Shown: positions 1-39,153, counted from the stretch's first letter. The stretch is 64,000 bases of DNA from an uncultured Gammaproteobacteria bacterium (GCA_964353785.1 CAYGWK010000004.1:22730-86729); one strand, 5' to 3'. Made by a program: numbers and translations. Notes: generated from the letters alone by a model not told the origin.

Positions 1-11
1 TTTTTTAAAAA

Positions 12-929
12 ATGTTTGATATTATCTCTGTTGGTTCAGCGGTTTTGGATGTTTTTCTCCGATCCTCTAAATTTCCTTTGGATAAAACCATGGTGGGCCA
101 AAAAATTGAGCCAGAGGAGATGCTTGTTTCTTCTGGTGGAGGAGGAACAAATACGGCGGCTGGATTCTCTCGCCTAGGACTTCAATCTGCCTGTATTGCC
201 CGTTTTGGTGATGATTTGTTTGGTAAGTTTTTACTTTCTGATTTGGAAAAAGAGGTTTTCTCGAAAAAATATTTAATTGAGAAAAAGGGAGATAATACTG
301 ATTATTCAACTATTTTAGTAAATCCCGATGGCGGACGAATTATTTTAGTTTATCGGGGGAAAACAAGAATTGAAGAAGATATTTTTCCCTGGCAGGCGCT
401 TGAAGAGACAAAAAATATTTATCTTGCCTCAATTGAAGGAAACATTGACTTGCTAATAAAAGTGGTTGAGAAAGCCAAAGAAAAAGGAATCAATATTTTC
501 TTAAATCCAGGCTCTCGAGAATTAAAAGAAAAAGAAAAATTACTTTCGGTTTTTCCAAAGTTAAAAGCCCTGATTTTAAATAAAGAAGAAGCGGATAATT
601 TTGGTCTTTCGGAAAGACCAAAAGACGGACCAGGAGTTGTCATTATTACCAATGGTCGTCAGGGTGCTAAACTTTTTTCCGAAGAAAAAAAGTTTTTTGC
701 TGAAGCGTTTAGCGGAGAAGTAATTGACGAAACTGGAGCCGGGGATGCTTTTTCCGCCGGTTTTGTTTCCGGGATAATTAAAGGATTTTCTTTGGAAAAA
801 TCATTAAAACTTGGGATGGCAAACGGAAGGTCAGTCGTCACCAAACTTGGAGCAAAACCTGGACTTTTATACGAGAAGGAAATTGAAGACTGGTTGGGAC
901 GATCATCAAAAATTGAACAAATAAATTAA
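12..929 (+). CDS. PfkB-family carbohydrate/ribokinase-like kinase
   Basis: N-terminal VGSAVLD..GGGGTN (GG motif) and C-terminal DETGAGDAF anion-hole/ATP motif typical of the ribokinase/PfkB superfamily. Confidence 0.8.
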   Translation: MFDIISVGSAVLDVFLRSSKFPLDKTMVGQKIEPEEMLVSSGGGGTNTAAGFSRLGLQSACIARFGDDLFGKFLLSDLEKEVFSKKYLIEKKGDNTDYSTILVNPDGGRIILVYRGKTRIEEDIFPWQALEETKNIYLASIEGNIDLLIKVVEKAKEKGINIFLNPGSRELKEKEKLLSVFPKLKALILNKEEADNFGLSERPKDGPGVVIITNGRQGAKLFSEEKKFFAEAFSGEVIDETGAGDAFSAGFVSGIIKGFSLEKSLKLGMANGRSVVTKLGAKPGLLYEKEIEDWLGRSSKIEQIN

Positions 930-950
930 TCAGCAATAAGTCTTCTAAAT

Positions 951-1331
951 ATGCCCGAAGAAAAACCGAAAATTCACATCGATTCTTGCGGTTGGGGAAA
1001 TGTCGTTATAGATGGTCAAAAATTTGACCAAGTGATAATTTCTGGGGAGAAAATAATTCATCGAGAAATAGAAAAATTAGAAAAACTTTTTGGGACGACT
1101 CACCAAATTGGTGATTGGGAGATTGAGAAATTGCTTTCAGGAAACCCGGAAATTATTATTTTAAGTTCTGGCCAGGGAGGAGTAATGAAAATTGCTGATG
1201 AAGTTAAGGAAAAATTATTAAAATCTGGTGCCGAATTAAAAATTCTTTTAACGCCCCAAGCAGTTTCGGAATTTAATAAACTTTCATCAGAAGGAAAACG
1301 AGTTAATGCTTTAATTCACACTACTTGTTGA
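951..1331 (+). CDS. Mth938-like (DUF498) small conserved protein
   Basis: ~126 aa, central IIILSSGQGG motif and overall length and pattern recalled for the Mth938 domain family. Confidence 0.45.
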   Translation: MPEEKPKIHIDSCGWGNVVIDGQKFDQVIISGEKIIHREIEKLEKLFGTTHQIGDWEIEKLLSGNPEIIILSSGQGGVMKIADEVKEKLLKSGAELKILLTPQAVSEFNKLSSEGKRVNALIHTTC

Positions 1332-1385
1332 GGCGCCCTTGGCGCCAAAATCCTGCCGAAGCGGCAGCGAAGGAGGACTAAAAAA

Positions 1386-2357
1386 ATGGCAATTTTTAAG
1401 CAATCAGACCAATTTGTTCCTCGCAAGCTACCAGGAAAAATTTTAAAGCCAATACCAAAACCAAAAGGAGGAGGAAAATGGATTTTGACTCTTTTTGCCG
1501 GAAGCATAGTTCTAAGTTTAGGTTTATGGGCTTATGGCTCCTTAAAAACAGGAACAGGTATTCAAAAAATAATTAGCCCGCAGGTCGTTCCTACTCCGAC
1601 CCCGACCCCAACCCCCAAAAAAACTGCCGAGATAACCGATAAAGTTTCTGATTTAACCAAAAATTTAAAAGGAGAATATGGGATTTACGTTTTTAATTTA
1701 ACGACTAAGCAAGGATATGGAGTAAATGAAGATGAAATCTTTCCAGCTGCTTCTTTAATTAAACTGCCAGTATTTTTAACTTTATATCAAGAAGCAGAAG
1801 CTGGCAGAATTGATTTGGAGACAAAATATACTTTGAAAAATTCTGATAAACAGGCTGGGGCAGGAGGGATGCAATATAAGCCTGCGGGAACAGTTTTTAC
1901 TTATAGGCAGATGGCAGAATTGATGGGAAAACAATCAGATAATACCGCCGTTTTTGTTTTGCGAAAAATCCTAGGGGATCAAAAAATTCAATCTACTATT
2001 GATAATTTGGGGATGACAAAAACCTCTCTTTCAAAAAATGAAACTAGTCCTCAAGATTTAGGTTTATTTTTTAGAAAATTATATGCGGGTTCAATAGTCA
2101 GCCGAGAGCATCGGGATGAGATTTTGGGATATTTAACCGAAACTTTTGATGAATCAAGAATCCCGGCTGGCGTACCAGAAGGAACGAGAGTTTGCCATAA
2201 AGTCGGGACTGAAATAGGCATTATCTCCGATGCGGGAATCGTTTTTAGCCAAAAACCCTTTATTTTGGTAATAATGTCTGAGAATGTTAAAGAATTAGAA
2301 GCCAAAGAAGTTTTACCAAAAATCGCCAAGGAAGTTTGGGAATTTGAGAATAAATAA
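1386..2357 (+). CDS. class A beta-lactamase-like serine hydrolase, membrane-anchored with a PT-rich linker
   Basis: N-terminal TM helix, PTPTPTPTP linker, SxxK (ASLIK), SDN (QSDNTA) and KxG (HKVGTE) motifs in class A order. Confidence 0.7.
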   Translation: MAIFKQSDQFVPRKLPGKILKPIPKPKGGGKWILTLFAGSIVLSLGLWAYGSLKTGTGIQKIISPQVVPTPTPTPTPKKTAEITDKVSDLTKNLKGEYGIYVFNLTTKQGYGVNEDEIFPAASLIKLPVFLTLYQEAEAGRIDLETKYTLKNSDKQAGAGGMQYKPAGTVFTYRQMAELMGKQSDNTAVFVLRKILGDQKIQSTIDNLGMTKTSLSKNETSPQDLGLFFRKLYAGSIVSREHRDEILGYLTETFDESRIPAGVPEGTRVCHKVGTEIGIISDAGIVFSQKPFILVIMSENVKELEAKEVLPKIAKEVWEFENK

Positions 2358-2394
2358 ACTATTGACATTATGATAAATTTGTCATAAAATAATC

Positions 2395-2691
2395 ATGAAA
2401 GTTTTCTATCTGCCTGAAGTTGCCGATTTTGTAGAGAAATTAAGATATCAGGAACATACTCGATTAACCAGAGTACGAAAGCTCTTTGAAGAATATTCAT
2501 TTCAAATAGGTGCTAAATATATAAAGAAAATTACAGCCTCCGGAATATGGGAATTGAAGGCGGGCAGGATTAGATTGTTTTTATATGTCAAGGGAGATAA
2601 GGCGATAGGGGTTCATATAATTTGGAAAAAATCACAAAAATTGACTATTAGAGATATAAAATTAGCAGAAAGACGAAGCAAACAACTATGA
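2395..2691 (+). CDS. higB: type II toxin, HigB/Gp49-like (RelE/ParE superfamily)
   Basis: 98 aa; GIWELKAGRIRLFLY...WKKSQK motif characteristic of the Gp49/HigB family; 4-bp ATGA overlap with the downstream HTH gene. Confidence 0.7.
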   Translation: MKVFYLPEVADFVEKLRYQEHTRLTRVRKLFEEYSFQIGAKYIKKITASGIWELKAGRIRLFLYVKGDKAIGVHIIWKKSQKLTIRDIKLAERRSKQL

Positions 2692-2981
2692 AAAATAAAA
2701 GAACAAAACTTATTAGCGCTGAAGCATTGCATCGAAAATGGATGAAAGATCCAAAATATCGCCGTGAGTATGAAAAACTTGAGTCAGAATTTCAAATTGC
2801 TCGGCAAATTATTGGAGCAAGGATTAAAAGGAAAATGTCTCAGGAAGAGTTGGCGAAAAAAGCAGGAACTGGACAAGCAGTTATCTCCCGACTTGAGGGA
2901 ATGAACGGCAAACCTTCAATTTCTCTTCTTGAAAGAATCGCCCGCGCCTTGAATACAAAAATAAGGGTTACTATTCAATAA
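2688..2981 (+). CDS. higA: HigA-like antitoxin, XRE-family HTH
   Basis: 97 aa; HTH segment MSQEELAKKAGTGQAVISRLE; translationally coupled to the upstream toxin gene. Confidence 0.7.
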   Translation: MKNKRTKLISAEALHRKWMKDPKYRREYEKLESEFQIARQIIGARIKRKMSQEELAKKAGTGQAVISRLEGMNGKPSISLLERIARALNTKIRVTIQ

Positions 2982-3019
2982 ATTATCAGAGTAGTTTGGG
3001 AGTTTGAGACAAAGTAAAT

Positions 3020-3616
3020 ATGGTAATTATTAATTGGGATACGTTGTTAAAAATAGGCTCTTTAGCAGGATTAGCATCGTTTGTGTGGCTATTGATAAAG
3101 GATCTTGTTGGGTTTTACCGAAAACCAAAATTAGAAATTACATTTACAAAAAACAGAGATTTAAGGAATTTCTTCTTTGAGGATACGAAATGGGAAAGAA
3201 GGTTTGCCAATTTACATATTAAAAACAAGGGGAAAGATACCGCCAAAAGATGCGTTGCTATCTTGAGAGTTTTAACAAAACCACGAGAGGCTACAAATAT
3301 TGAAGAAGAATATGCTCTTCATTGGGCTGGAGTTGATTATTCTGCTCAAACAACCGGCGCAGAACCCGTTGATATAGGTCCCGAACCAAGAAGATTAGAT
3401 GTGGCGTTCACTCAGAATGGTCAGAATATAAATGGGAGTTGGATAGCGATGCCTCTTGCCTTATTGGGATCTTTAAGAAGAAATCAGGCGTATCTTCCAC
3501 CGGGTGAATACGAACTTAAAATTGAGGTTCAATGCGAGAACGGAAGTGGAGATAAAGCAAAATTTAAAATTATTTCTCCTCAGAATTGGGAGAATTTAGA
3601 TTTTGATAAGTTATAA
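3020..3616 (+). CDS. hypothetical protein with N-terminal TM anchor (cassette ORF)
   Basis: ORF with N-terminal hydrophobic helix; flanked on both sides by copies of the 3' end of the upstream hydrolase gene. Confidence 0.5.
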   Translation: MVIINWDTLLKIGSLAGLASFVWLLIKDLVGFYRKPKLEITFTKNRDLRNFFFEDTKWERRFANLHIKNKGKDTAKRCVAILRVLTKPREATNIEEEYALHWAGVDYSAQTTGAEPVDIGPEPRRLDVAFTQNGQNINGSWIAMPLALLGSLRRNQAYLPPGEYELKIEVQCENGSGDKAKFKIISPQNWENLDFDKL

Positions 3617-3807
3617 TATTTCTGGGACTTCTGCGGAAGAAGCTTTCCCGCCATTATCAAAATGGTTTGGGAGTTTGAGATAAAATAAATTTTCTTCTTA
3701 AAACACAAAAAGGCACCGCGAAAAGTAGTTTTGTTGCTCAACGCAACTCGTTACTTCTCTTTGGTGCCTCCTTGCACTATTCAGTTTCTGGAAGGATGTG
3801 TTGGGGG

Positions 3808-4302
3808 CTATTCCAGCGGTGATTCGAGAGACTCCTCGGCCTCTTTGATCTTTGGTTCCAAGACATCAGCAACATCACTTAGTCCCAGTGTGATGACGGC
3901 GGTGCCATCCTCTTCGGAAATCGTTGTTTCTTCTGAAAGAAGGCTAGATGTTTTGCTGGCTGACTTCCGAGTTTCATCAACGTGATGGGCCCTGATCAGG
4001 ATGTTGTCGGAATCTTGGGTTGTCCGGAGCGAGTTTATAACCTGTTCAGCTGCTCCTTCTCCGTTATCCCGATCGTAAAGCCAAGGATCGAGTGATTCAC
4101 CGCTTAGGTCCACCTTCATAACCCGACCCTTGAGATAGTCGAAGTCAGAGCAGCCGCGAGACAAAATCTCTTTGGCTTCTTCGACATCCATCGGTTTAGG
4201 GTCATAATGGAGGAACCCCATTCCTTGTGGTTTGGCCGCGTTGTATAGCGCTGCTAGAACAGCGGCTTTGTCCAATCCCTTCAGATCGATTAAATTAGAC
4301 AT
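3808..4302 (-). CDS. hypothetical acidic protein in a GC-rich foreign-looking segment
   Basis: ORF starting MSNLIDLKG with an AAGGAGA RBS 7 nt upstream; local GC clearly above the window average. Confidence 0.5.
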   Translation of the reverse strand: MSNLIDLKGLDKAAVLAALYNAAKPQGMGFLHYDPKPMDVEEAKEILSRGCSDFDYLKGRVMKVDLSGESLDPWLYDRDNGEGAAEQVINSLRTTQDSDNILIRAHHVDETRKSASKTSSLLSEETTISEEDGTAVITLGLSDVADVLEPKIKEAEESLESPLE

Positions 4303-4519
4303 AAATCTCTCCTTATTTAGTCTCACCTTAATAGGTGGCTTTCTGCCTACCTGGCAACAGATAAGCAAAGAGCCACCTACTCTGATGAGTAATCCTTCCG
4401 CAAACTGTAAAAGTGCAAGAATAAAAATTCAAACAAACAAAAAACAGGCAAGCAAATTAGCCTGAATTTGTTTGGCTTGATATGAGAATAATACCACAAA
4501 TAAACTCAAAAGTCAAATA

Positions 4520-6835
4520 TTATAGGTTCTTGTTCTTTCTCTCTTCCTCAATCTTTTTAATTTCTTCTTCTGTGCAGGAATTTTTTGGTTCGGTGCCAGG
4601 AAGGAAAATTTCTGTTTTTTTGCTTGGGCAGGCATCGCAGGACAAGGTTCCGGTAAGGGTGCAAATTTCAACCCTGACTAAGTTTTCTGGAAGAGAAAAT
4701 TTCTCATCAGGTTTGTCTTTTAAAAGTTCGGCCATGATATTGTGCCAAATTGGCGAGGCGCCGGTCACGCCCGAGGCAACGTAAGACATAGGTGTAGCAT
4801 CGTTGTTGCCGACCCAGGTAACGACCAAGAGATTTGGAGTATAACCGATGGTCCAGTTATCTTTTAAATTGTTGCTGGTGCCGGTTTTAACCGCCACCGA
4901 GGGATGTTCGGGGATATTTAAAAGTGAATTTGGACCAAAGGCTGGAGTTCGAGCTAAGTTGTCAGAAAGAATATCATCTAAAATATAGGCGATCTGCGGC
5001 GAAAGAGCCCTTTCGCCTTCAATTTCCAGCTTTTCCAGAACTTTTCCTTTATAATTTGAGCGTAGCGAAAATTTCAAGCTTTGCTTATAATCTTTAACCT
5101 CCAAAATTGGCTGTAAACCAACTTTCATTCCCAAATTTGCCAGGGTTCCATAAACTACGGCCATGTCAGTCATTTTGACTTCGCCTCCGCCTAAAGTTAG
5201 GGAAAGTCCGTATTGGGAGGGGTCGTTCCAGGTAGTGATGCCCATTTTTTGACCTTGTTCAATCATTCGAGAAACTCCTAAAGCAGAGAGAACTTTAACT
5301 GCCGGAACATTATAAGAAGAACCCAGGGCTATCCTTAGAGGGACATTGCCATGAAATCGGCCATCATAGTTTTTTGGCGAATAAGGAGGTTGTCCAGGAA
5401 CCTGATAAGTTATGGGCGTGTCGGGAATAATGGTGGCTGGCGTAAAACCCATTGAAAGAGCCACCGAATAATTAACTGGTTTAATTGAGGAGCCGGGCTG
5501 GCGGTTGGCGGTGGTGACGTTATAGTTTCCCTGGTTTTTTAAATCAAAATAATCTTTTGAACCTATCATCGCTAAAATTTCTCCGGTTTTAGGATTAGTT
5601 ACCAGGGCAGCTCCATTTGAAATTCGCAAAGATTTTAATTTTTCAACCTCACTTGAGACTTGCTTTTGGGCCAGGTTTTGAATATCCAAATCCAAGGAGG
5701 TTTTAACCTCAAGTCCACCTTCCTCAACCATTTTTTCTCCATATTTTTTAACCAGGAGTTCTTTAACATACATCACAAAATGGGGAGCGAAAATGTCAGT
5801 TTTTTTCAAAACCAGATGGATGTCCTGGGCCGATGCTTCGTCTGCCTGTTTTTGGGTGATAAATTTTTCCTCAACCATTCGGCGCAAAACAAGTTTCTGG
5901 CGCTCTTTGGCAATCTCTGGGTGGGCGCCGAAAGGAGAATAGGTAGTTGGTGAGGCTGGCAAGCCAGCTAAAAGAGCGGCTTCGGCCAAATTTATCTCTT
6001 TGACTGATTTGCCAAAATATAACTGTGAAGCCTCTTCAACCCCATAAGCCGCGCCCCCAAAACCAACCTCATTTAAATACATCTGAAGAATCTCGTCTTT
6101 TGAGAATTTTCTCTCAACCCATAAAGAGAGAATTATTTCTTTTATTTTTCTGCGAATGGTTCGTTCGGGGGAAAGGAGGGCATTTTTAACTAGTTGTTGG
6201 GTAATGGTTGAACCACCCTCGATTTTTCCAGTTTGGACAATTTTTCTGGCAGCCCGAAGAATTCCTTTTGCCGATAGTCCATGATGAGAATAAAATTCAG
6301 CATCTTCAATGGCGACCACCGCCTGGCGCAAAAAAAGGGGAGTTTCTGAAAGAGGAACTAGGGTTCGATTTTCGCTGCGATAAATTTTATAGAGAAGTTT
6401 GCCGTTTCGGTCGTAAATTTTGGTTGAGACAATCTGTTCTCTGGTGGTAAGTTTTTGGGGATTGGGGAGTTCGGAAAAAATAGTAAATAGAAAATAGGAA
6501 ATAGCAGATAGGAAAGAAACAGTTAAAAAGACAAGGAGAACAACCTTTCGAGAAATTTTGGGAAAGCGGATTTTTGGAATTCTGGGAAAACGAATTTTGG
6601 GAAATCTTAAACGAGAAACGTAAGACGCAAAACACGACAAGAGATTTATCAAGAAATGTCCAAGACGAGGAAAAAGGCTGGCAATCGCCAATAGGCAGTA
6701 GGCAATAAGAAGTATTGCCCAAAGGAACGGCTTTCCTAAAACCTCCAGAACTTTGCCAAAAAATTTCCAGGCAGAGAACCCTTTTTTGGGTTGAAGTTTT
6801 TTGGCGGAGTAGATGATTCCTGTCCTGACCGCCAT
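4520..6835 (-). CDS. class A penicillin-binding protein (PBP1a-type transglycosylase/transpeptidase)
   Basis: N-terminal TM; GT51 motif GGSTITQQLVKN; transpeptidase SSIKP (SxxK), SYN (SxN) and KTGTS (KTG) motifs. Confidence 0.9.
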   Translation of the reverse strand: MAVRTGIIYSAKKLQPKKGFSAWKFFGKVLEVLGKPFLWAILLIAYCLLAIASLFPRLGHFLINLLSCFASYVSRLRFPKIRFPRIPKIRFPKISRKVVLLVFLTVSFLSAISYFLFTIFSELPNPQKLTTREQIVSTKIYDRNGKLLYKIYRSENRTLVPLSETPLFLRQAVVAIEDAEFYSHHGLSAKGILRAARKIVQTGKIEGGSTITQQLVKNALLSPERTIRRKIKEIILSLWVERKFSKDEILQMYLNEVGFGGAAYGVEEASQLYFGKSVKEINLAEAALLAGLPASPTTYSPFGAHPEIAKERQKLVLRRMVEEKFITQKQADEASAQDIHLVLKKTDIFAPHFVMYVKELLVKKYGEKMVEEGGLEVKTSLDLDIQNLAQKQVSSEVEKLKSLRISNGAALVTNPKTGEILAMIGSKDYFDLKNQGNYNVTTANRQPGSSIKPVNYSVALSMGFTPATIIPDTPITYQVPGQPPYSPKNYDGRFHGNVPLRIALGSSYNVPAVKVLSALGVSRMIEQGQKMGITTWNDPSQYGLSLTLGGGEVKMTDMAVVYGTLANLGMKVGLQPILEVKDYKQSLKFSLRSNYKGKVLEKLEIEGERALSPQIAYILDDILSDNLARTPAFGPNSLLNIPEHPSVAVKTGTSNNLKDNWTIGYTPNLLVVTWVGNNDATPMSYVASGVTGASPIWHNIMAELLKDKPDEKFSLPENLVRVEICTLTGTLSCDACPSKKTEIFLPGTEPKNSCTEEEIKKIEEERKNKNL

Positions 6836-6866
6836 ACCAGGCTAATTATACCTCAAAACTCTTTTT

Positions 6867-9101
6867 TTAGGGAGTAGGAGATGGAGAGAGTAAATTTAGG
6901 GGGTTTATTTTGGCTGGGGCGGGTTTTTGCTCTGGAGGCAAGGGTGGACAATCAAGGCAAAAAATTGTTCCCAGGGGGTCCAAAATTACATTATGGTCTT
7001 GAGGTTCAACCCAATCAGGAAAAGGTTGGTCAGAGGAAATTTCTCCTGGCTGGACCGGAAGACCTGAAGTTTTATTTATCAAAACCGTTTTTCTTAAAGA
7101 TTCAGTCTCCTGAGGAACTGTTCCTTCCAAGAAATACTCAAACCGAGTTTGGCAGCCTGACTCTCCGAGAGCCATTCCGGAGACAGTACAAATACTTGCC
7201 CCAATTATACCTTCGGGCTTGATGGGCCAGTTTTGTTTCTGGCTTTTTAAAACAAAACTTATGATTTTATTCCAAATTGGTGAGGCGCCGGTCACCCCCG
7301 AAGCCACGGCGGACATTGGTTTGTTATCATTGTTGCCAACCCAAGTGGCAACTAAAAAGTCAGGGGTATAGCCGATTGTCCAGTTATCCTTTTTATCATT
7401 AGTGGTTCCGGTTTTGACGGAAACTTCAGGATGACCAGAAACCACCAAATATGAAGATGGTCCAAAGGCAAGGGAACGGGCATTATTATCAAGTAAGGTA
7501 TGAGAAATTAAATAGGCAACTTCCATGGGAATAATTCTTTCACCCTCTTGGATTTGGGTTTTTTCAAGTGTCTTTCCGGTATAATCAGAAACCTCTAAAA
7601 TTGAAACTAGCGGTTGTTTTATTCCTAAGTTGGCAAAAACCCCAAAAGCAGTGGCCATATCTGTCATCCGGACTTCGCCCCCACCCAAGGTTAGAGATAA
7701 ACCATATTGTTTTGGATCTTGGAGTGTCTCAAGCCCCATTTTTTGAGCAAAAGGAACAAAATTTTCTAAAGTATTTAAGGCTAAAACTTTAACCGCGACC
7801 ACATTAATTGAACTTCCTAGGGCAAATCTTGCTTGAAGCGGTCCATGGAAAGTATTGTCATAATTTGAGGGACAATAAAGTGGCTGACCAGTGACCTGGA
7901 AACAGGTTGGAGCATCGTTGAAGACTGTGGCTAAAGTTATTTTTTTATCCAAAAGTCCCAAAGCATAATTTAAGGGTTTGATGGCTGAACCAGGCTGGCG
8001 CAGGGCGGTTGAAACATTATAGTTTCCTTGAATATCTTTGGCAAAATAGTCTTTTGAACCAACCATGGCTAGAATCTCACCAGTTTTAGGGGCAGTTACC
8101 AAAGCGGCGCCATTTGAAACACGATAATTTTTAAGTTTGCCAACTTCAGTGGCCACTGCTCTTTCGGCAAACTCTTGAGTATCCAAATCTAAGGTAGTCT
8201 TAACCCGAAGCCCCCCTTGTTCAACTTGTCTTTGGCCATATTTTTCCACCAACTGTTCCTTAACGTACATGACAAAGTGGGGGGCTTTAATTCCAGTTTC
8301 ATGAGGGGCAAAACTAAGTTCCTGTTCTTTTGCTTTTTTGCTTTCTTCCTCGGTAATATGTTTGTCCTCAACCATTCTTCCCAAAACCCAAATTTGGCGC
8401 TGGAAAGCCAGTTCTGGATGGGCCCCAAAAGGAGAATATCTAGTAGGCGAGGCCGGCAGACCGGCCAAAAGAGTCGTTTCGGCTAAAGTCAAGTCGCGGG
8501 CGGACTTTCCAAAATAAAGTCTTGCCGCTGATTCTATTCCCCAGGCAGTTCCTCCGTAAGGAACTTGGTTTAAATACATCTCTAAAATTTTGTCTTTTGG
8601 GTAAATTACCTCAACTGCCAAGGTCAGAAAGAACTCGCGGATTTTTCTTCGGACTGTTCGCTCTGGTGTTAGGAGGGCATTTTTAACCAATTGTTGAGTA
8701 ATGGTTGAACCACCTTGAAGTTTTTGGTGAAAGATAATATTAAAGATGGCCCGGGCCATGCCTCGATAGGAAAAACCATGGTGGCGATAAAAATCTTTGT
8801 CTTCAGAGGAAATGGTTGCCCATTTGATATATTCTGGAACTTCCGAAAGTTTTATTGGAGTTCGGTTTTGGTCAGTATAAATTTCATATAATAATTTTCC
8901 ATTTCGATCAAAAATCTGGCTTGAAACAGGATAGGGCCAAGAGGTAAGTTTCCAGGGGGGAGGCATGTCCCAGAATAAATAAAGCAAACAGCAGACAGCA
9001 AACAGCAGACAGCAAACAGCAAGAAATTTTTGTTTAGTGGTTAATTTCTTAAATTTTTTACTGAACACTGGACGCTGAACGCTGGACACTGCTTTCTTCA
9101 T
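6867..9101 (-). CDS. class A penicillin-binding protein, second paralog (PBP1a-type)
   Basis: GGSTITQQLVKN GT51 motif, SAIKP, SIN, KTGTT motifs; start moved to internal Met (MKKAVSS) before the TM; Pro-rich C-terminal tail. Confidence 0.85.
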   Translation of the reverse strand: MKKAVSSVQRPVFSKKFKKLTTKQKFLAVCCLLFAVCCLLYLFWDMPPPWKLTSWPYPVSSQIFDRNGKLLYEIYTDQNRTPIKLSEVPEYIKWATISSEDKDFYRHHGFSYRGMARAIFNIIFHQKLQGGSTITQQLVKNALLTPERTVRRKIREFFLTLAVEVIYPKDKILEMYLNQVPYGGTAWGIESAARLYFGKSARDLTLAETTLLAGLPASPTRYSPFGAHPELAFQRQIWVLGRMVEDKHITEEESKKAKEQELSFAPHETGIKAPHFVMYVKEQLVEKYGQRQVEQGGLRVKTTLDLDTQEFAERAVATEVGKLKNYRVSNGAALVTAPKTGEILAMVGSKDYFAKDIQGNYNVSTALRQPGSAIKPLNYALGLLDKKITLATVFNDAPTCFQVTGQPLYCPSNYDNTFHGPLQARFALGSSINVVAVKVLALNTLENFVPFAQKMGLETLQDPKQYGLSLTLGGGEVRMTDMATAFGVFANLGIKQPLVSILEVSDYTGKTLEKTQIQEGERIIPMEVAYLISHTLLDNNARSLAFGPSSYLVVSGHPEVSVKTGTTNDKKDNWTIGYTPDFLVATWVGNNDNKPMSAVASGVTGASPIWNKIISFVLKSQKQNWPIKPEGIIGASICTVSGMALGESGCQTRFEYFLEGTVPQETESLRKTVLINKTSGLPVQPGEISSDQPFPDWVEPQDHNVILDPLGTIFCLDCPPLPPEQKPAPAKINPLNLLSPSPTP

Positions 9102-9209
9102 GCTTGTATTATAGCAGGCAAAGCCTTTATGGTATAAGCGAAGCTTGAAAACTTGTTTGAAAGCTGATGCTTTCAAAAGCCTTTGCCTTTTAGGCAAAGG
9201 AAGTTTATA

Positions 9210-10877: not shown

Positions 10878-11195
10878 ATGAGGAAGTGTCGTTATTGTGG
10901 GTTCCAAAATCCAGACACTGCCTCTGATTGTCTTCAATGCGGCAAAGATTTGCCTAAAACAACTCGAGAAGTCAAAGATGCCTTTGAAACTTTAGGGGCG
11001 GCCATGAAGGGGGATTGGGGAAAGGTTGGCCGAAAAACTGTTGAAGAGACAAAGCTTCACTTAAACCCTCTCTGGTGGCTTAAGGTAAAATTATTTCGTT
11101 TAAAACAAGCAGTCATCGGTTGTTTAATTATCTGGCTTATTATCATTGGTTTGGCTATTCTCGGCGGAATATTCTCTAAATTTCAAGGAAAATGA
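10878..11195 (+). CDS. zinc-ribbon protein with C-terminal TM helix
   Basis: CRYCGFQNPDTASDCLQCG zinc ribbon; C-terminal hydrophobic helix; 4-bp overlap with downstream HD gene. Confidence 0.55.
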   Translation: MRKCRYCGFQNPDTASDCLQCGKDLPKTTREVKDAFETLGAAMKGDWGKVGRKTVEETKLHLNPLWWLKVKLFRLKQAVIGCLIIWLIIIGLAILGGIFSKFQGK

Positions 11196-18684: not shown

Positions 18685-18758
18685 GGGCACGTAGCTCAGC
18701 TGGTTAGAGCGCGATTCTTATAAAATCGAGGTCCCTGGTTCGAGACCAGGCGTGCCCA
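18685..18758 (+). tRNA. tRNA-Ile with anticodon UAU (TAT)
   Basis: Manual cloverleaf: acceptor GGGCACG/CGTGCCC, D-arm TAGCTCAGCTGGTTAGAGC, anticodon stem CGATT/AATCG with loop CTTATAA, T-arm CCTGG-TTCGAGA-CCAGG; CCA not encoded. Confidence 0.8.
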
Positions 18759-18759
18759 C

Positions 18760-19632
18760 TTAAAGTTCCTCGAGTTTTACCTTTTCTGCCCCGGTTTTTT
18801 CTTTAACGAATTGAAGATATTTTTCGGTGGTTGAAAGTCTTTTGTGACCAGCCAGCTTTTGGAGTAAAACTACTGAGGCTCCGGAGGCTAAATGGTAAAC
18901 TAGCCAGGTATTTCTGAGATCATTAACCTTGGCATTCTCAATGCCGGCAATTCGAAAATAGCGGTCAATTGAGGTTCTAATGTTTCGGACCAATAAAGGT
19001 CTGCCGGTTTTGGTCACAAAAACGCTCTTGTTTTTGGTTTTTGGTCGCTCGGCTAAATACTGGTCTAAAGCAGCCTTGGCGACCTTGTTTAAAGGGATAG
19101 TTCTTTCGGATTGGGACTCGTAAGGTTTGATATAGATTTCACCCTCTTTGATATTAGAAAGTTCAAGTCTTGAAAGTTCCCCAATTCTTACTCCTGTTTG
19201 AAGCATCAGTTCTACCGCGGCGGCCATTCTCGCGTCTTGCCGGCAAGCATCCCGGAGAGCTCGATATTCCATTTTGGAAAGAATTCTTGGCGGTTTAACC
19301 TCGTATTTTGGATGAGAAACAGATGCGGCTGGGTCTTCGTCAACCAATCCTTGAGATTTCAAAAACCTAAAAAAGGTTTTAATTGAGTTGATTTTTCGGG
19401 AAATTGACTTTAAGGTATAGCCCTTTTTGGAAAAGTCTTCTTTGAACTGGTCAAGATGCTCACTTGTAATTGAGGTTACCTGGGTTATTTTTTTACCATC
19501 CAAAAAAGAAACCAGCTGCTCGATGTCTTTACCGTATGCTAAAATGGTAGAGATTGAACGCTTTTGGCTTTTTAAATATTCTACAAACTTTTCGTGAGCC
19601 AAAGTTAGAGAGGTTTGTTCGCCTGCCATAGT
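18760..19632 (-). CDS. tyrosine site-specific recombinase (XerC/XerD / phage integrase family)
   Basis: N-terminal SAM-like domain; C-terminal catalytic region with LAGH..R...Y (HxxR...Y) motif; stop codon 1 bp from the tRNA-Ile 3' end, convergent. Confidence 0.8.
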   Translation of the reverse strand, partial: TMAGEQTSLTLAHEKFVEYLKSQKRSISTILAYGKDIEQLVSFLDGKKITQVTSITSEHLDQFKEDFSKKGYTLKSISRKINSIKTFFRFLKSQGLVDEDPAASVSHPKYEVKPPRILSKMEYRALRDACRQDARMAAAVELMLQTGVRIGELSRLELSNIKEGEIYIKPYESQSERTIPLNKVAKAALDQYLAERPKTKNKSVFVTKTGRPLLVRNIRTSIDRYFRIAGIENAKVNDLRNTWLVYHLASGASVVLLQKLAGHKRLSTTEKYLQFVKEKTGAEKVKLEEL

Positions 19633-19672
19633 AAACGGCGCTATAATATCACTTGAGAGGATATCTGTCAAG

Positions 19673-20026
19673 ATGAGAAACAAACTAATTACTGGGATAC
19701 TCTTTCTTTTTGGTCTCTACCTCATAGTTTCTTTCTCTCGGGATATTTTGGATCTATATCAAAAAAGTAAAGAAATTGAAAAAGAACAGTTTAAACTTGA
19801 AGAACTTCAGGTTAAAAATGAAGAATTAAAAAAGCAACTTGAATATGTCAAAAGTCAGGAATTTTTGGAGAAAGAGGCGCGAGAAAAATTAGGGTTGGCT
19901 AAGGAAGGAGAGGCAGTCGTCATTCTGCCGGAAAATGTTGAGGAGTTAATCAGTGGTAATCAGCCTCAAATCAGCGCTAATCAGGAAGTTCCTAACTGGA
20001 AAAAGTGGCTCAAGCTTTTCTTTTGA
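19673..20026 (+). CDS. FtsB/DivIC-like septum formation initiator
   Basis: N-terminal TM, coiled-coil, AREKLGL motif typical of FtsB/DivIC. Confidence 0.65.
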   Translation: MRNKLITGILFLFGLYLIVSFSRDILDLYQKSKEIEKEQFKLEELQVKNEELKKQLEYVKSQEFLEKEAREKLGLAKEGEAVVILPENVEELISGNQPQISANQEVPNWKKWLKLFF

Positions 20027-20054: not shown

Positions 20055-20127
20055 CGCGGGGTAGTGTAAAGTTGCACGGAAGGCTCATAATCTTCCAGCC
20101 TGGGCGCGATTCCCAGCCCCGCAACCA
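20055..20127 (+). tRNA. tRNA-like sequence with CAT anticodon and noncanonical T-loop (possible degenerate/unusual tRNA)
   Basis: Cloverleaf foldable by hand: acceptor CGCGGGG/CCCCGCA with C1:A72 mismatch, anticodon loop CTCATAA, T-loop CGCGATT lacks T54-T55-C56; encoded CCA; abuts the next tRNA with zero spacer. Confidence 0.35.
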
Positions 20128-20199
20128 GGCAGCGTAGCTCAGTGGTAGAGCGGTATCTTCATAAGATAATGGTCACAGGTTCAAATCCTGTCGCTGCCA
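20128..20199 (+). tRNA. tRNA with CAT anticodon (elongator Met or lysidine-type Ile2)
   Basis: Acceptor GGCAGCG/CGCTGCC, D-arm TAGCTCAGTGGTAGAGC, anticodon loop TTCATAA, T-arm ACAGG-TTCAAAT-CCTGT. Confidence 0.8.
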
Positions 20200-20202
20200 C
20201 TA

Positions 20203-37250: not shown

Positions 37251-37876
37251 AACTAATTGTTGGTCTTGGAAATCCAGGGAAAAAGTACGAAAACAGTCGG
37301 CATAATGTTGGGTTTATGGTGGTGGATGAATTGGCCAGAAAATTTCAAATTTCAAATTTCAAATTTCAAATTGACAAAAAAGCAAACGCGGAGATTATCA
37401 AAACTAGTCATGGAGGAGAAGAGATTGTTTTGGCAAAACCCCAAGTCTTTATGAATGCTTCTGGCTTTGCGGTTGCCAAGTTATGTAGCCATTTAGCCAT
37501 TGAGCAATTTAGCAATCTCTGGGTAATTCATGATGATTTGGACCTGCCTTTGGGAAAAATAAAAATTGTCCAAGGTCGAGGTTCAGCCGGGCATCATGGA
37601 ATAGAGTCAATTATCAGGGAACTTGGCACGGCTGATTTTGTCAGATTTCGGCTCGGAGTAGGCCATCCTCTGAAAGGGGATGAGTGGTATGTTTCTCAAG
37701 GCGGACCAGTTGATAAAAATGTCAAACATAAAGAAGTAGAGGAGTATGTTTTAGAAGAATTTTCTGGAAAAGATAGGGTTGAAGCAGGAAAAATGATTAA
37801 AAAGGCAGCCGAGGCAATTGAAATTTCTCTTGAAAAAGGAATAGAACAGGCAGAAAATCAGTTGAATCTAAAATGA
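37247..37876 (+). CDS. pth: peptidyl-tRNA hydrolase
   Basis: MKLIVGLGNPGKKYENSRHNVGF N-terminus, catalytic His; contains an in-frame FQISNFKFQI insertion from an octamer tandem repeat. Confidence 0.85.
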   Translation: MKLIVGLGNPGKKYENSRHNVGFMVVDELARKFQISNFKFQIDKKANAEIIKTSHGGEEIVLAKPQVFMNASGFAVAKLCSHLAIEQFSNLWVIHDDLDLPLGKIKIVQGRGSAGHHGIESIIRELGTADFVRFRLGVGHPLKGDEWYVSQGGPVDKNVKHKEVEEYVLEEFSGKDRVEAGKMIKKAAEAIEISLEKGIEQAENQLNLK

Positions 37877-38419: not shown

Positions 38420-39153
38420 GAACTTCGGGTTTTATGTATTCTCACTGGAAGGGAGAATTTTACCCCAAAGATTTACCCCAAAGAGAGTGGTTTGAATATT
38501 ATTGTCAGCATTTTGACTCGGTTGAACTTAATGTTTCTTTTTATCGCCTGCCCAAAAAAGAAGTATTTGCTGGTTGGCGAAGAAAAGCAGGTAAAAACTT
38601 TGTTTTTTCCATTAAAGGTAGCCGATTTATTACCCACATTAAGAAATTAAAAGATTGCCAGGAAGCGGTGGAGAGATTTTTTGAAGCCGCAGATTCCTTA
38701 AGAGGTCGGACCTCTCAGGAGGTCCGACCTCACCAGGGAAGGAATATCATTCTTTGGCAGCTTCCGCCAGGCTTAAAAGTAAATTCAGAAAGACTGGAGT
38801 TGTTCTTAAAAATCCTGCCCAAAGATTTTCGTCATGCCTTTGAGTTTCGCAGTTCGACATGGCTCACTGTAAAGGTTTGTGAATTGCTTCGGAAATATAA
38901 TTCCGCAGTTGTTTTTCAAGATTATCCTGATTGGCCGATTACTCGGGAGGAAACCGCTGATTTCGTCTATATCAGATTCCACGGAAACCGCGACCTTTAT
39001 TCTTCTGAATACACTGATGAGGAATTAAGAGAATGGGCAAAAAGAATTAAAAAATATTTAAAAGAGGGAAGTGATATCTATGTATATTTCAACAACGATG
39101 CATTGGGCTATGCAATTTCTAACGCTTTGACTTTGAAAAAGTTACTAGGTTGA
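38401..39153 (+). CDS. DUF72-family protein
   Basis: GTSGF...W...FYP...L.YY...F..VE.N.SFYR pattern typical of DUF72 (UPF0759). Confidence 0.7.
   Translation: MSKVFIGTSGFMYSHWKGEFYPKDLPQREWFEYYCQHFDSVELNVSFYRLPKKEVFAGWRRKAGKNFVFSIKGSRFITHIKKLKDCQEAVERFFEAADSLRGRTSQEVRPHQGRNIILWQLPPGLKVNSERLELFLKILPKDFRHAFEFRSSTWLTVKVCELLRKYNSAVVFQDYPDWPITREETADFVYIRFHGNRDLYSSEYTDEELREWAKRIKKYLKEGSDIYVYFNNDALGYAISNALTLKKLLG

Follow-up and report, generated by a model that had tools for sequence, protein, structure and literature searches.

The stretch analysed here, a window of 64,000 nucleotides (CAYGWK010000004.1:22730-86729 of GCA_964353785.1, listed as an uncultured Gammaproteobacteria bacterium), comes from a host of the Patescibacteria/Microgenomates type, the closest genome being the metagenome-assembled genome Betzabe_MAG191. 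Near its left end lies a gene for a membrane-anchored serine hydrolase whose 3' end recurs twice downstream, once behind a toxin-antitoxin (TA) pair and once behind a single open reading frame (ORF), before a convergent gene for a penicillin-binding protein of the PBP1A type (hereafter PBP1A) is reached. This gene end and the interval between both genes are the subject of this analysis. On the NCBIfam model bla_class_A, the hydrolase scored 99 bits and thus stays under the 200-bit cut-off for a true beta-lactamase. Pfam assigned the array-flanking genes to PfkB, DUF498 and Beta-lactamase2, while two downstream PBP genes were named from their translations only. Loci from other genomes are designated by L and a number. 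The features are as follows.

1386-2357, plus strand: membrane-anchored class-A beta-lactamase-like serine hydrolase (PF13354 at 9e-55), with its last ~15 codons as the putative landing pad
2322-2359, plus strand: copy 1 of the repeat, functional gene terminus; core GTTTGGGAATTTGAGA at 2334-2349, stop at 2355-2357
2362-2390, plus strand: predicted higBA promoter TTGACA-17-TAAAAT, an 11/12 consensus match that contains the palindrome TGACA..TGTCA
2395-2691, plus strand: higB-like toxin of the Gp49/DUF891 family (PF05973 at 1.2e-8)
2688-2981, plus strand: higA-like helix-turn-helix (HTH) antitoxin, HTH_3 (PF01381 at 3.7e-12)
2982-3019, plus strand: copy 2, relic hydrolase terminus and right boundary of the higBA unit; stop at 3015-3017, hidden Markov model (HMM) E 0.004
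3020-3616, plus strand: ORF198, accessory gene with a predicted N-terminal transmembrane helix and beta-sandwich (AlphaFold2, predicted local distance difference test 92)
3641-3690, plus strand: copy 3, relic hydrolase terminus SFPAIIKMVWEFEIK with its stop at 3686-3688, matched by the C-terminus HMM and, together with the hairpin behind it, homologous to the hydrolase end of L019/L020
3711-3769, plus strand: long hairpin AGGCACC...GGTGCCT (RNA fold -31.6 kcal/mol, z -3.5), a native-type structure downstream of the hydrolase terminus
3808-4368, minus strand: ORF186, third inserted gene, probable ATG start at 4302; GC content 48% vs 36-37% in its neighbours
4520-6835, minus strand: PBP1A-type penicillin-binding protein, named from translation and length; conserved convergent right flank of the hot spot
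18760-19683, minus strand: Xer-like tyrosine recombinase (PF00589, PF02899)

A repeat search of the window returned one family of direct repeats with three members of 38 nt each, at 2322-2359, 2982-3019 and 3653-3690, spaced by 660 and 671 nt. Copies 2 and 3 are identical at 33 of 38 positions and copy 1 matches either of them at 27/38. The 26-nt consensus of copies 2 and 3 was found twice in the window against 0.00 matches expected from 100 shuffles, so that low-complexity chance matches, the objection foreseen in a preliminary description of this DNA, are ruled out. That description had reported the double recurrence of the hydrolase 3' end, a further ATTATCA.A..T.G upstream of copies 2 and 3, and the position of the copies at the 3' boundaries of inserted units. 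The recurrence was confirmed, the upstream motif proved real on inspection of the sequence, and the boundaries are as described: copy 2 starts with the base after the higA stop (2979-2981) and has its right edge 2 nt before the ATG of ORF198 (3020), and the homology of copy 3 sets in 25-37 nt past the ORF198 stop (3614-3616).

When translated in frame, all three copies give the hydrolase C-terminus (..VWEFExK) down to the TAA stop. Copy 1 reads ..LPKIAKEVWEFENK, copy 2 IIRVVWEFETK and copy 3 SFPAIIKMVWEFEIK, each followed by the stop. This coding content was absent from the preliminary description and supports its view of the copies as displaced or duplicated hydrolase 3' ends. Because copies 2 and 3 read in frame as the conserved C-terminus, they are relic gene ends and not palindromic sites; as coding explains the conservation of the repeat, no special DNA site is needed for it. 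Ile-Ile is common to copies 2 and 3 and occurs in 0/66 native hydrolase termini, and the likeness of the two copies to each other (33/38) exceeds that to any of these 66 termini (at most 31/38). The segment 3665-3773, which comprises core and tail of copy 3 together with the hairpin, is 76-80% identical to the intact hydrolase end and downstream hairpin of L019 and L020 (the L019 counterpart of the hairpin lies at ~11037-11100). By this homology, copy 3 is taken as a displaced native-type hydrolase end.

The reading frames of higB and higA overlap by 4 nt (2688-2691), and the PF05973 domain is present in all 19 higB homologues. With a Gp49/HigB toxin gene upstream of an overlapping HTH-XRE antitoxin gene and a promoter of its own, 2395-2981 is predicted to be a HigBA-type type II TA pair. 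A TA module had been announced as cargo, which was borne out by PF05973 and PF01381.

The unit reappears in L054, although the hydrolases of the window and L054 share only 49% protein and 68-70% DNA identity. Over the segment that begins with GTTTGGGAATTTGAGAATAAATAAAC, includes promoter and higBA and closes with copy 2, identity amounts to 92-100%: core and tail of copy 1 are identical at 26/26 positions, the promoter at 97%, higB at 92%, higA at 93.5% and the relic at 92%, while the downstream DNA drops to 34%. Within copy 2, 11/12 positions of the arm and 25/27 of core and tail agree. The shared identity stops exactly at the relic end, beyond which follow a methylase gene of opposite strand in L054 and ORF198 in the window; the junction of the higA stop with ATTATCAGAG is identical in both, with unrelated downstream neighbours. 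A third genome with the same layout is L112, where higBA is 89-93% identical and the relic begins at the same Ile codon. Tail 1 (TTTGAGAATAAATAAA) and core 2 (GTTTGGGAG) are identical in the window, L054 and L112 (16/16 and 9/9, respectively). In L112 the differences begin with tail 2 and extend downstream, whereas tail 2 of L054 matches the window at 16/18 positions and only the downstream DNA differs. These alignments show that the higBA unit was transferred with its flanking copies between distant genomes, and the cassette thus occurs in other genomic contexts, for which a search had been proposed. The recipient hydrolase of L054 (286-1299) contains an in-frame stop (..TIDK, stop, GMRK..) and a GC-rich insertion of ~24 residues, which would make it either a pseudogene or an assembly error.

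The higBA promoter follows the hydrolase in eight lineages (window, L054, L112, L108, L021, L107, L047 and L049). In L107 (1364-1420), L049 (1090-1175) and L047 (~1731), the hydrolase stop TGA lies inside the -35 box TTGACA, and these loci appear to represent a fused 'resident' arrangement. No relic was present in L107 and L049, the stop-in-box loci with the higA 3' flank on the contig. More distant higBA relatives (70% identity) have a Lactamase_B_3 gene upstream or are placed between SNase and NusA, and a duplication of the upstream gene end was not found at the Lactamase_B_3 loci examined (L097, L098). The mimic of a gene end therefore need not be typical of this TA family in general.

A metagenome scan with hydrolase alignment, together with genome loci, gave 85 loci for comparison, among which the convergent hydrolase/PBP1A pair is widely kept; hydrolase and PBP1A converge in about 60 loci. 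The site is empty in L001, the closest genome, whose hydrolase is 82% identical and whose hydrolase and PBP1A stops lie 26 bp apart, and the interval of the window measures 2,162 bp. L005 (hydrolase 86%) and L016/17 (83-87%) carry other short content. This supports the part of the earlier interpretation by which the copies delimit independently acquired units, and the units are variably present in relatives. In total, 27/85 loci are empty (stop-to-stop distance -47 to +26 bp, many with 3' ends that overlap by 38-47 nt), eight have 75-170 bp and 29 have 0.35-3.3 kb. The cargo includes enzymes (MazG, N6/N4 DNA methylases with BsaWI or MjaI endonucleases, NYN and HD proteins) as well as TA genes and regulators (HigB/Gp49, Phd/YefM with ParE/YafQ, HTH regulators). 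A related N6/N4 DNA methylase gene on the minus strand is found in L034, L036, L040, L045, L052, L054 and L088, adjoined in L045 by a BsaWI-type endonuclease gene; a restriction-modification (R-M) module would therewith be the second frequent occupant of the hot spot.

Relics were called with an HMM of the last 24 hydrolase residues over all six-frame fragments. Downstream of an intact hydrolase they were detected in L026, L051, L054, L067 and L094 with the HMM and in L096 and L112 by targeted look-ups; two of these seven loci carry one common cargo. In L026, a 1.1-kb insert stands between the two copies of a perfect 33-bp direct repeat (TCCTGAAATCACCAAGATTGTTTGGGAGTTTGA), whose inner sides are unrelated. 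In L051, L067 and L094, where the relic runs into the 3' end of PBP1A, it agrees with ..LVWGWESSxxSL, the native terminus of the empty loci L069, L070 and L095, while the working terminus is a different one (..IIWDFERI or ..IIWDFETD). Since the relic is the old native terminus and the working one differs, the insert appears to have brought a replacement terminus in these three loci. The duplication is one-sided, as no PBP1A-end relics were found in the interval of the 24 filled loci searched. A regular in-frame position of the relics with the upstream cargo ORF was considered as well; it held by coordinates in 4/6 cases, was not significant and was dropped. The comparison demonstrates on the sequence level an empty site in relatives and the recurrence of relics at the same gene end in other lineages, and the hydrolase/PBP1A interval is probably a recurrent landing pad in Patescibacteria/Microgenomates-type genomes.

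A local tandem duplication of the hydrolase with subsequent decay, the gaps being filled later by unrelated genes, or plain chance similarity would explain only the existence of the repeats. With 0 matches expected by chance, relics of 11-15 codons and no further hydrolase remnants, a higBA unit that shares its flanking copies with a distant genome, and relics that recur in independent loci with different cargo, the probability of such an origin is negligible.

The end of the hydrolase is strongly conserved, and ..LPxIxKxVWEFE.. is kept in all 120 best of 687 homologues. The 25-mer GTTTGGGAATTTGAGAATAAATAAA is identical on the nucleotide level in the window (2334-2358), L005 (4270-4294), L054 (1276-1300) and L020 (~10988-11012) and matches L083 at 24/25 positions, whereas the 18 nt before it vary at synonymous sites between lineages. 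The hydrolase proteins of the lineages with the identical 25-nt terminus are 49-86% identical (48% for L083). This suggests that gene termini were exchanged horizontally or are constrained at the DNA level; an identical terminus in diverged hydrolases is what a swap of termini together with the inserts would produce. A test for nucleotide-level constraint on the terminus gave ordinary synonymous-codon entropy at the VWEFE codons. The Glu codons 319 and 321 of VWEFE (2340-2342 and 2346-2348 in the window) prefer GAG (65-72% in 81 loci), while GAA accounts for ~70% elsewhere in the hydrolase genes (Fisher p 2e-9 to 3e-17, uncorrected for kinship among loci).

Successive Campbell-type integration at a mimic of the gene terminus, as put forward in the preliminary description, stays the best description of the locus and is considered fairly probable in the form of a serial insertion of recombinase-less cassettes, each of which would supply a replacement terminus. 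Small units (a TA pair, single accessory ORFs or HTH genes) would enter inside the last ~10-15 hydrolase codons. As the incoming DNA would bear its own short copy of the hydrolase terminus, the gene would stay intact and one copy would be left past the cargo. The resulting attL-cargo-attR topology would comprise the gene, its terminus, the cargo, the terminus copy and the old downstream DNA. At least two insertions would have taken place in the window, and stacking would put the newest unit beside the gene. The presumable starting point is a hydrolase ending in copy 3 and followed by the native hairpin; the ORF198 unit would have been inserted into it and then, closest to the gene, the higBA unit. 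A circular intermediate would be expected, with higA stop-ATTATCAGAGTA-GTTTGGGA-ATTTGAGAATAAATAAAC-TATTGACA as candidate circle junction.

The crossover may lie within the short conserved core (G/A)TTTGGGAR..TTTGA or equally at the stop codon. Both fit equally because the ENK tail found beside higBA is also native in L005 and L020, which are without higBA, and the higBA unit in the three genomes is compatible with an exchange in (G/A)TTTGGGAR or at the stop codon. Since the cassettes and their surroundings in the loci examined encode no recombinase, the driver would be either short homology on the ~40-bp conserved terminus or a recombinase acting in trans. We lean slightly towards homology-driven exchange in view of the varying boundaries and the lack of symmetry in the site. 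As in an integrative element, direct repeats of the target-gene 3' end border the insert, and a terminus borne by the element preserves the gene.

Several observations weigh against serial Campbell-type insertion. The cargo was scanned as 63 ORFs (Pfam, top 25 of 46 matched families) and as 20 larger ORFs individually, 10 of them from PBP1A-bounded intervals and 10 from downstream of a hydrolase without PBP1A on the contig; neither an integrase, resolvase or transposase nor, as would befit an integrative element, an own integrase or excisionase was found. No Xer-like match was obtained near any hot spot with tblastn over all loci, and no autonomous element using the site was found among the 85 hydrolase loci and in plasmid, phage and viral collections: plasmids and phages gave no blastn match for 2322-3690, and viral contigs none for the two DNA patterns or HigB. 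Most filled sites have no relic detectable with the C-terminus HMM. The left boundaries of the relics range from 2 to 10 codons upstream of VW, the exchange point of L094 lies further upstream within NEVLPKIS, and L051 also needs an upstream exchange; a single fixed core is therefore hard to reconcile with these loci. The identity tracts between gene end and relic are 8-16 bp in most loci, which is short for RecA. L096 carries an ORF198 that is 90% identical, with another small ORF between the hydrolase and a relic directly preceding the ORF198 ATG, yet no relic follows ORF198 there. L109-L111, which are of the same strain (99.9-100% identical), show the same arrangement and neither an empty-site nor a circular form. 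Whether the ENK tail travels with the higBA cassette is ambiguous in view of its native occurrence in genomes without higBA.

Many of these points would equally suit homology-facilitated illegitimate recombination of linear DNA, e.g. after natural transformation, a process established in competent bacteria (PMC3240628). A donor fragment with the 3' part of a hydrolase and a downstream gene would be anchored by homologous exchange in the hydrolase, and its other end would join at microhomology in the resident terminus before the essential PBP1A end, leaving a truncated relic; neither a cassette nor a circle or an att site would be needed. The variable left boundaries of the relics, the exchange upstream of the core in L094 and L051, the many filled sites without relic and the lack of a recombinase in the cassettes or near the hot spot are in agreement with such a course. 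Where the two genes overlap, as they do by 38-47 nt in some lineages, a viable junction would moreover have to fall within the last ~60 nt of the hydrolase, which matches the relic lengths, and AAATT/AGATT, read from the sequences at the joints between higA and the relic, is a possible microhomology. Joints formed in this way should, however, be unique for each event, whereas the junction of the higA stop with ATTATCAGAG is identical in the window and L054 beside unrelated neighbours and the L112 relic starts at the same Ile codon. An att-like pattern is also seen in L026, whose perfect 33-bp repeat has unrelated inner sides. Illegitimate recombination is thus regarded as the main rival, a possible but rather unlikely origin.

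The Xer-like recombinase had been noted before at 18760-19632; its existence was confirmed, but it extends over 18760-19683 on the minus strand. It lies 15 kb from the repeats and matches the XerD/XerC families best, under the curated cut-offs (152 bits vs 330 for XerD). Only L048 contains an orthologue according to tblastn over all loci, about 8.6 kb from the hydrolase. Nothing was found that ties the gene to the repeats and it looks like a housekeeping gene. The gene for tRNA-Ile(tat) at 18685-18759 ends one base before the stop of this oppositely stranded gene, and two tRNA-Met genes are arranged head to tail without spacer within 20055-20200.

TA modules are typical cargo of plasmid dif (pdif) modules, and the TA cargo, the one Xer-like recombinase in the window and the site between convergent genes could be reconciled with integrative mobile elements exploiting Xer (IMEX) or pdif-module-like elements that use the host Xer at a dif-like site overlapping the gene end. 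This had been suggested earlier, and the 11-6-11 palindromy check did not sustain it. The best 11-N5-8-11 palindromy reached 6-8 of 11 positions and was equalled by 28-100% of 500 shuffles. The flanking copies are direct, of the same orientation and non-palindromic, their conservation is explained by coding, and no inversely oriented XerC/D and XerD/C sites were found. The GC skew is positive over the 64 kb with a monotonic cumulative rise and no switch at 2-4 kb. Together with the distance of 15 kb to the Xer-like gene, this makes a dif-type mechanism very unlikely. Elsewhere in the window, at 37343-37370 and 38703-38730, the palindrome scan picked up a tandem run of TTTCAAA and a palindrome with perfect 11-6-11 symmetry (AGGTCGGACCT CTCAGG AGGTCCGACCT).

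In formal terms, the layout also resembles an integron-type array in which the hydrolase terminus would play the part of attI and the relics that of attC: every unit closes 3' with a related site, and the newest one stands by the fixed site; the mutual likeness of copies 2 and 3 (33/38), their Ile-Ile and the TA pair in the cargo would fit. As had been stated before, no integron integrase is nearby: the sole tyrosine recombinase in 64 kb reaches 42 bits vs the 265-bit cut-off on TIGR02249. The integron-like interpretation given along with this statement fell for want of IntI, attC boxes and an attC-like fold. No inverse-core/core pair and no RYYYAAC...GTTRRRY were recognised when reading the sequence, where GTTTGGG misfits GTTRRRY; folding of both strands as single-stranded DNA was no better than shuffles (z -2.0 to +1.3) and gave no common hairpin; and the sites are in-frame coding pieces. 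A true integron is hence extremely unlikely. The likeness of copies 2 and 3 and the Ile-Ile nevertheless keep a functionally integron-like reading alive at low probability. The hydrolase terminus would then be the fixed site of a gene capture without IntI and attC, in which mini-cassettes of 0.6-1.3 kb with TA or single genes, each with a non-palindromic terminus mimic of 30-45 bp, are moved by a recombinase in trans, possibly the host Xer-like enzyme, and spread between Patescibacteria with target genes only ~50% identical. We consider this improbable.

ORF198 had been described as an orphan, which was not borne out, since 104 homologues (about 42-90% identical at near-full coverage) were found across phyla, including bins of Nitrospirae, Desulfatiglandales and Promethearchaeota (three other phyla, one of them archaeal). 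Its predicted fold gave weak matches to the PDB (template modelling score about 0.4) with archaellin-like topology. The neighbours of the family in L006-L015 are type IIG R-M, TIR, AbiEii and nSTAND genes as well as transposases, and ORF198 may be a defence or surface gene not yet characterised. No relics were present around its relatives at 78% identity (L006-8), which have nothing but the ORF in common with the window. The hairpin behind copy 3 may be a terminator or a small structured RNA. A covariance model retrieved no copies in other loci beyond L019/L020, and a permissive Rfam scan of 1-8000 gave a single match at chance level (Bacteroides-1, E 0.9) and none for the hairpin. ORF186 had no match in Pfam, NCBIfam and PADLOC and was absent from the other loci, save those of the same strain. 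Two PBP1A-type paralogues are arranged in tandem at 4520-6835 and 6867-9197, both on the minus strand, and the pair is also found in L001 and L017.

Patescibacteria, or candidate phyla radiation (CPR) bacteria, have tiny genomes. Their gain of accessory and defence genes is poorly documented, as no description of a recurrent integration site in this group was found in the literature searched. The landing pad at the end of this cell-wall hydrolase gene, beside PBP1A, collects TA, R-M and other selfish or defence genes, and the relic gene ends record past insertions; at least one TA cassette has moved between distant lineages across it. Should an enzyme in trans prove responsible, the locus would amount to a compact capture system that resembles an integron but lacks its known parts; should homology alone drive the process, it would offer a clean natural example of cassette spread via a conserved stretch of ~40 bp. 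In either case, the defined 38-mer and the defined junctions provide a testable handle on gene flow in uncultured bacteria.

Among known systems, cis-mobilizable elements (CIMEs) are deletion derivatives of integrative and conjugative elements and are mobilised by the known integrase of such an element with the same att site. CIMEs and accretion at the fda 3' end of Streptococcus thermophilus are mentioned in PMC7563491. The units described here likewise have no recombinase genes, stand in tandem beside a conserved protein gene and are bordered on both sides by direct att copies of its 3' end. Unlike CIMEs, they measure only 0.6-1.3 kb, their exchange points do not appear to be fixed, and no cognate integrase or autonomous element was found for them. 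Staphylococcal cassette chromosome (SCC) elements integrate at defined repeats of ~15-18 bp at the 3' end of rlmH (orfX) in staphylococci, which are cut by the serine recombinases CcrAB or CcrC; they range from kilobases to tens of kilobases, and some are without an own recombinase. SCC and pseudo-SCC share with the hydrolase locus the gene terminus as integration site and the tandem arrays bounded by gene-end direct repeats, but no Ccr-like gene was seen here. As in CIMEs and pseudo-SCC, att-flanked units without recombinase have accreted by a conserved gene, two of them stacked in the window; a cognate autonomous element or recombinase was not found in the 85 loci and in the plasmid, phage and viral collections.

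In island accretion at the 3' ends of tRNA and transfer-messenger RNA genes, including tycheposons, attP mimics the target 3' end (bioRxiv 10.1101/2020.12.28.424599). There, too, incomplete copies of the target delimit insertions that followed one another, and integrase-less cargo remnants accumulate; the hydrolase locus differs in its protein-coding terminus and tiny cargo units, and no integrase-bearing member was found. TA systems cluster in gene-turnover 'spots' between core genes, alone or with transposases or integrases (PMC13617665). The minimal mobile elements of Neisseria resemble the hot spot in the fixed core-gene interval, the varying whole-gene TA and R-M cassettes and the lack of mobility genes. 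They move by homologous recombination within the genes on either side, and no gene end is duplicated in the process, whereas here the hydrolase terminus, and it alone, is duplicated. With integron cassettes and dif/pdif modules, the units have in common that they are small, mostly single-gene, arranged head to tail with a related end site, and carry TA cargo, but the attC palindrome, the 11-6-11 dif and IntI were tested for and not encountered, and nothing was found that links a Xer enzyme to the site. From all of these systems, the hydrolase landing pad differs in that no recombinase or autonomous element was found for it, in its apparently non-fixed exchange points, in its location at the terminus of a CPR protein gene and in the very small size of its units.

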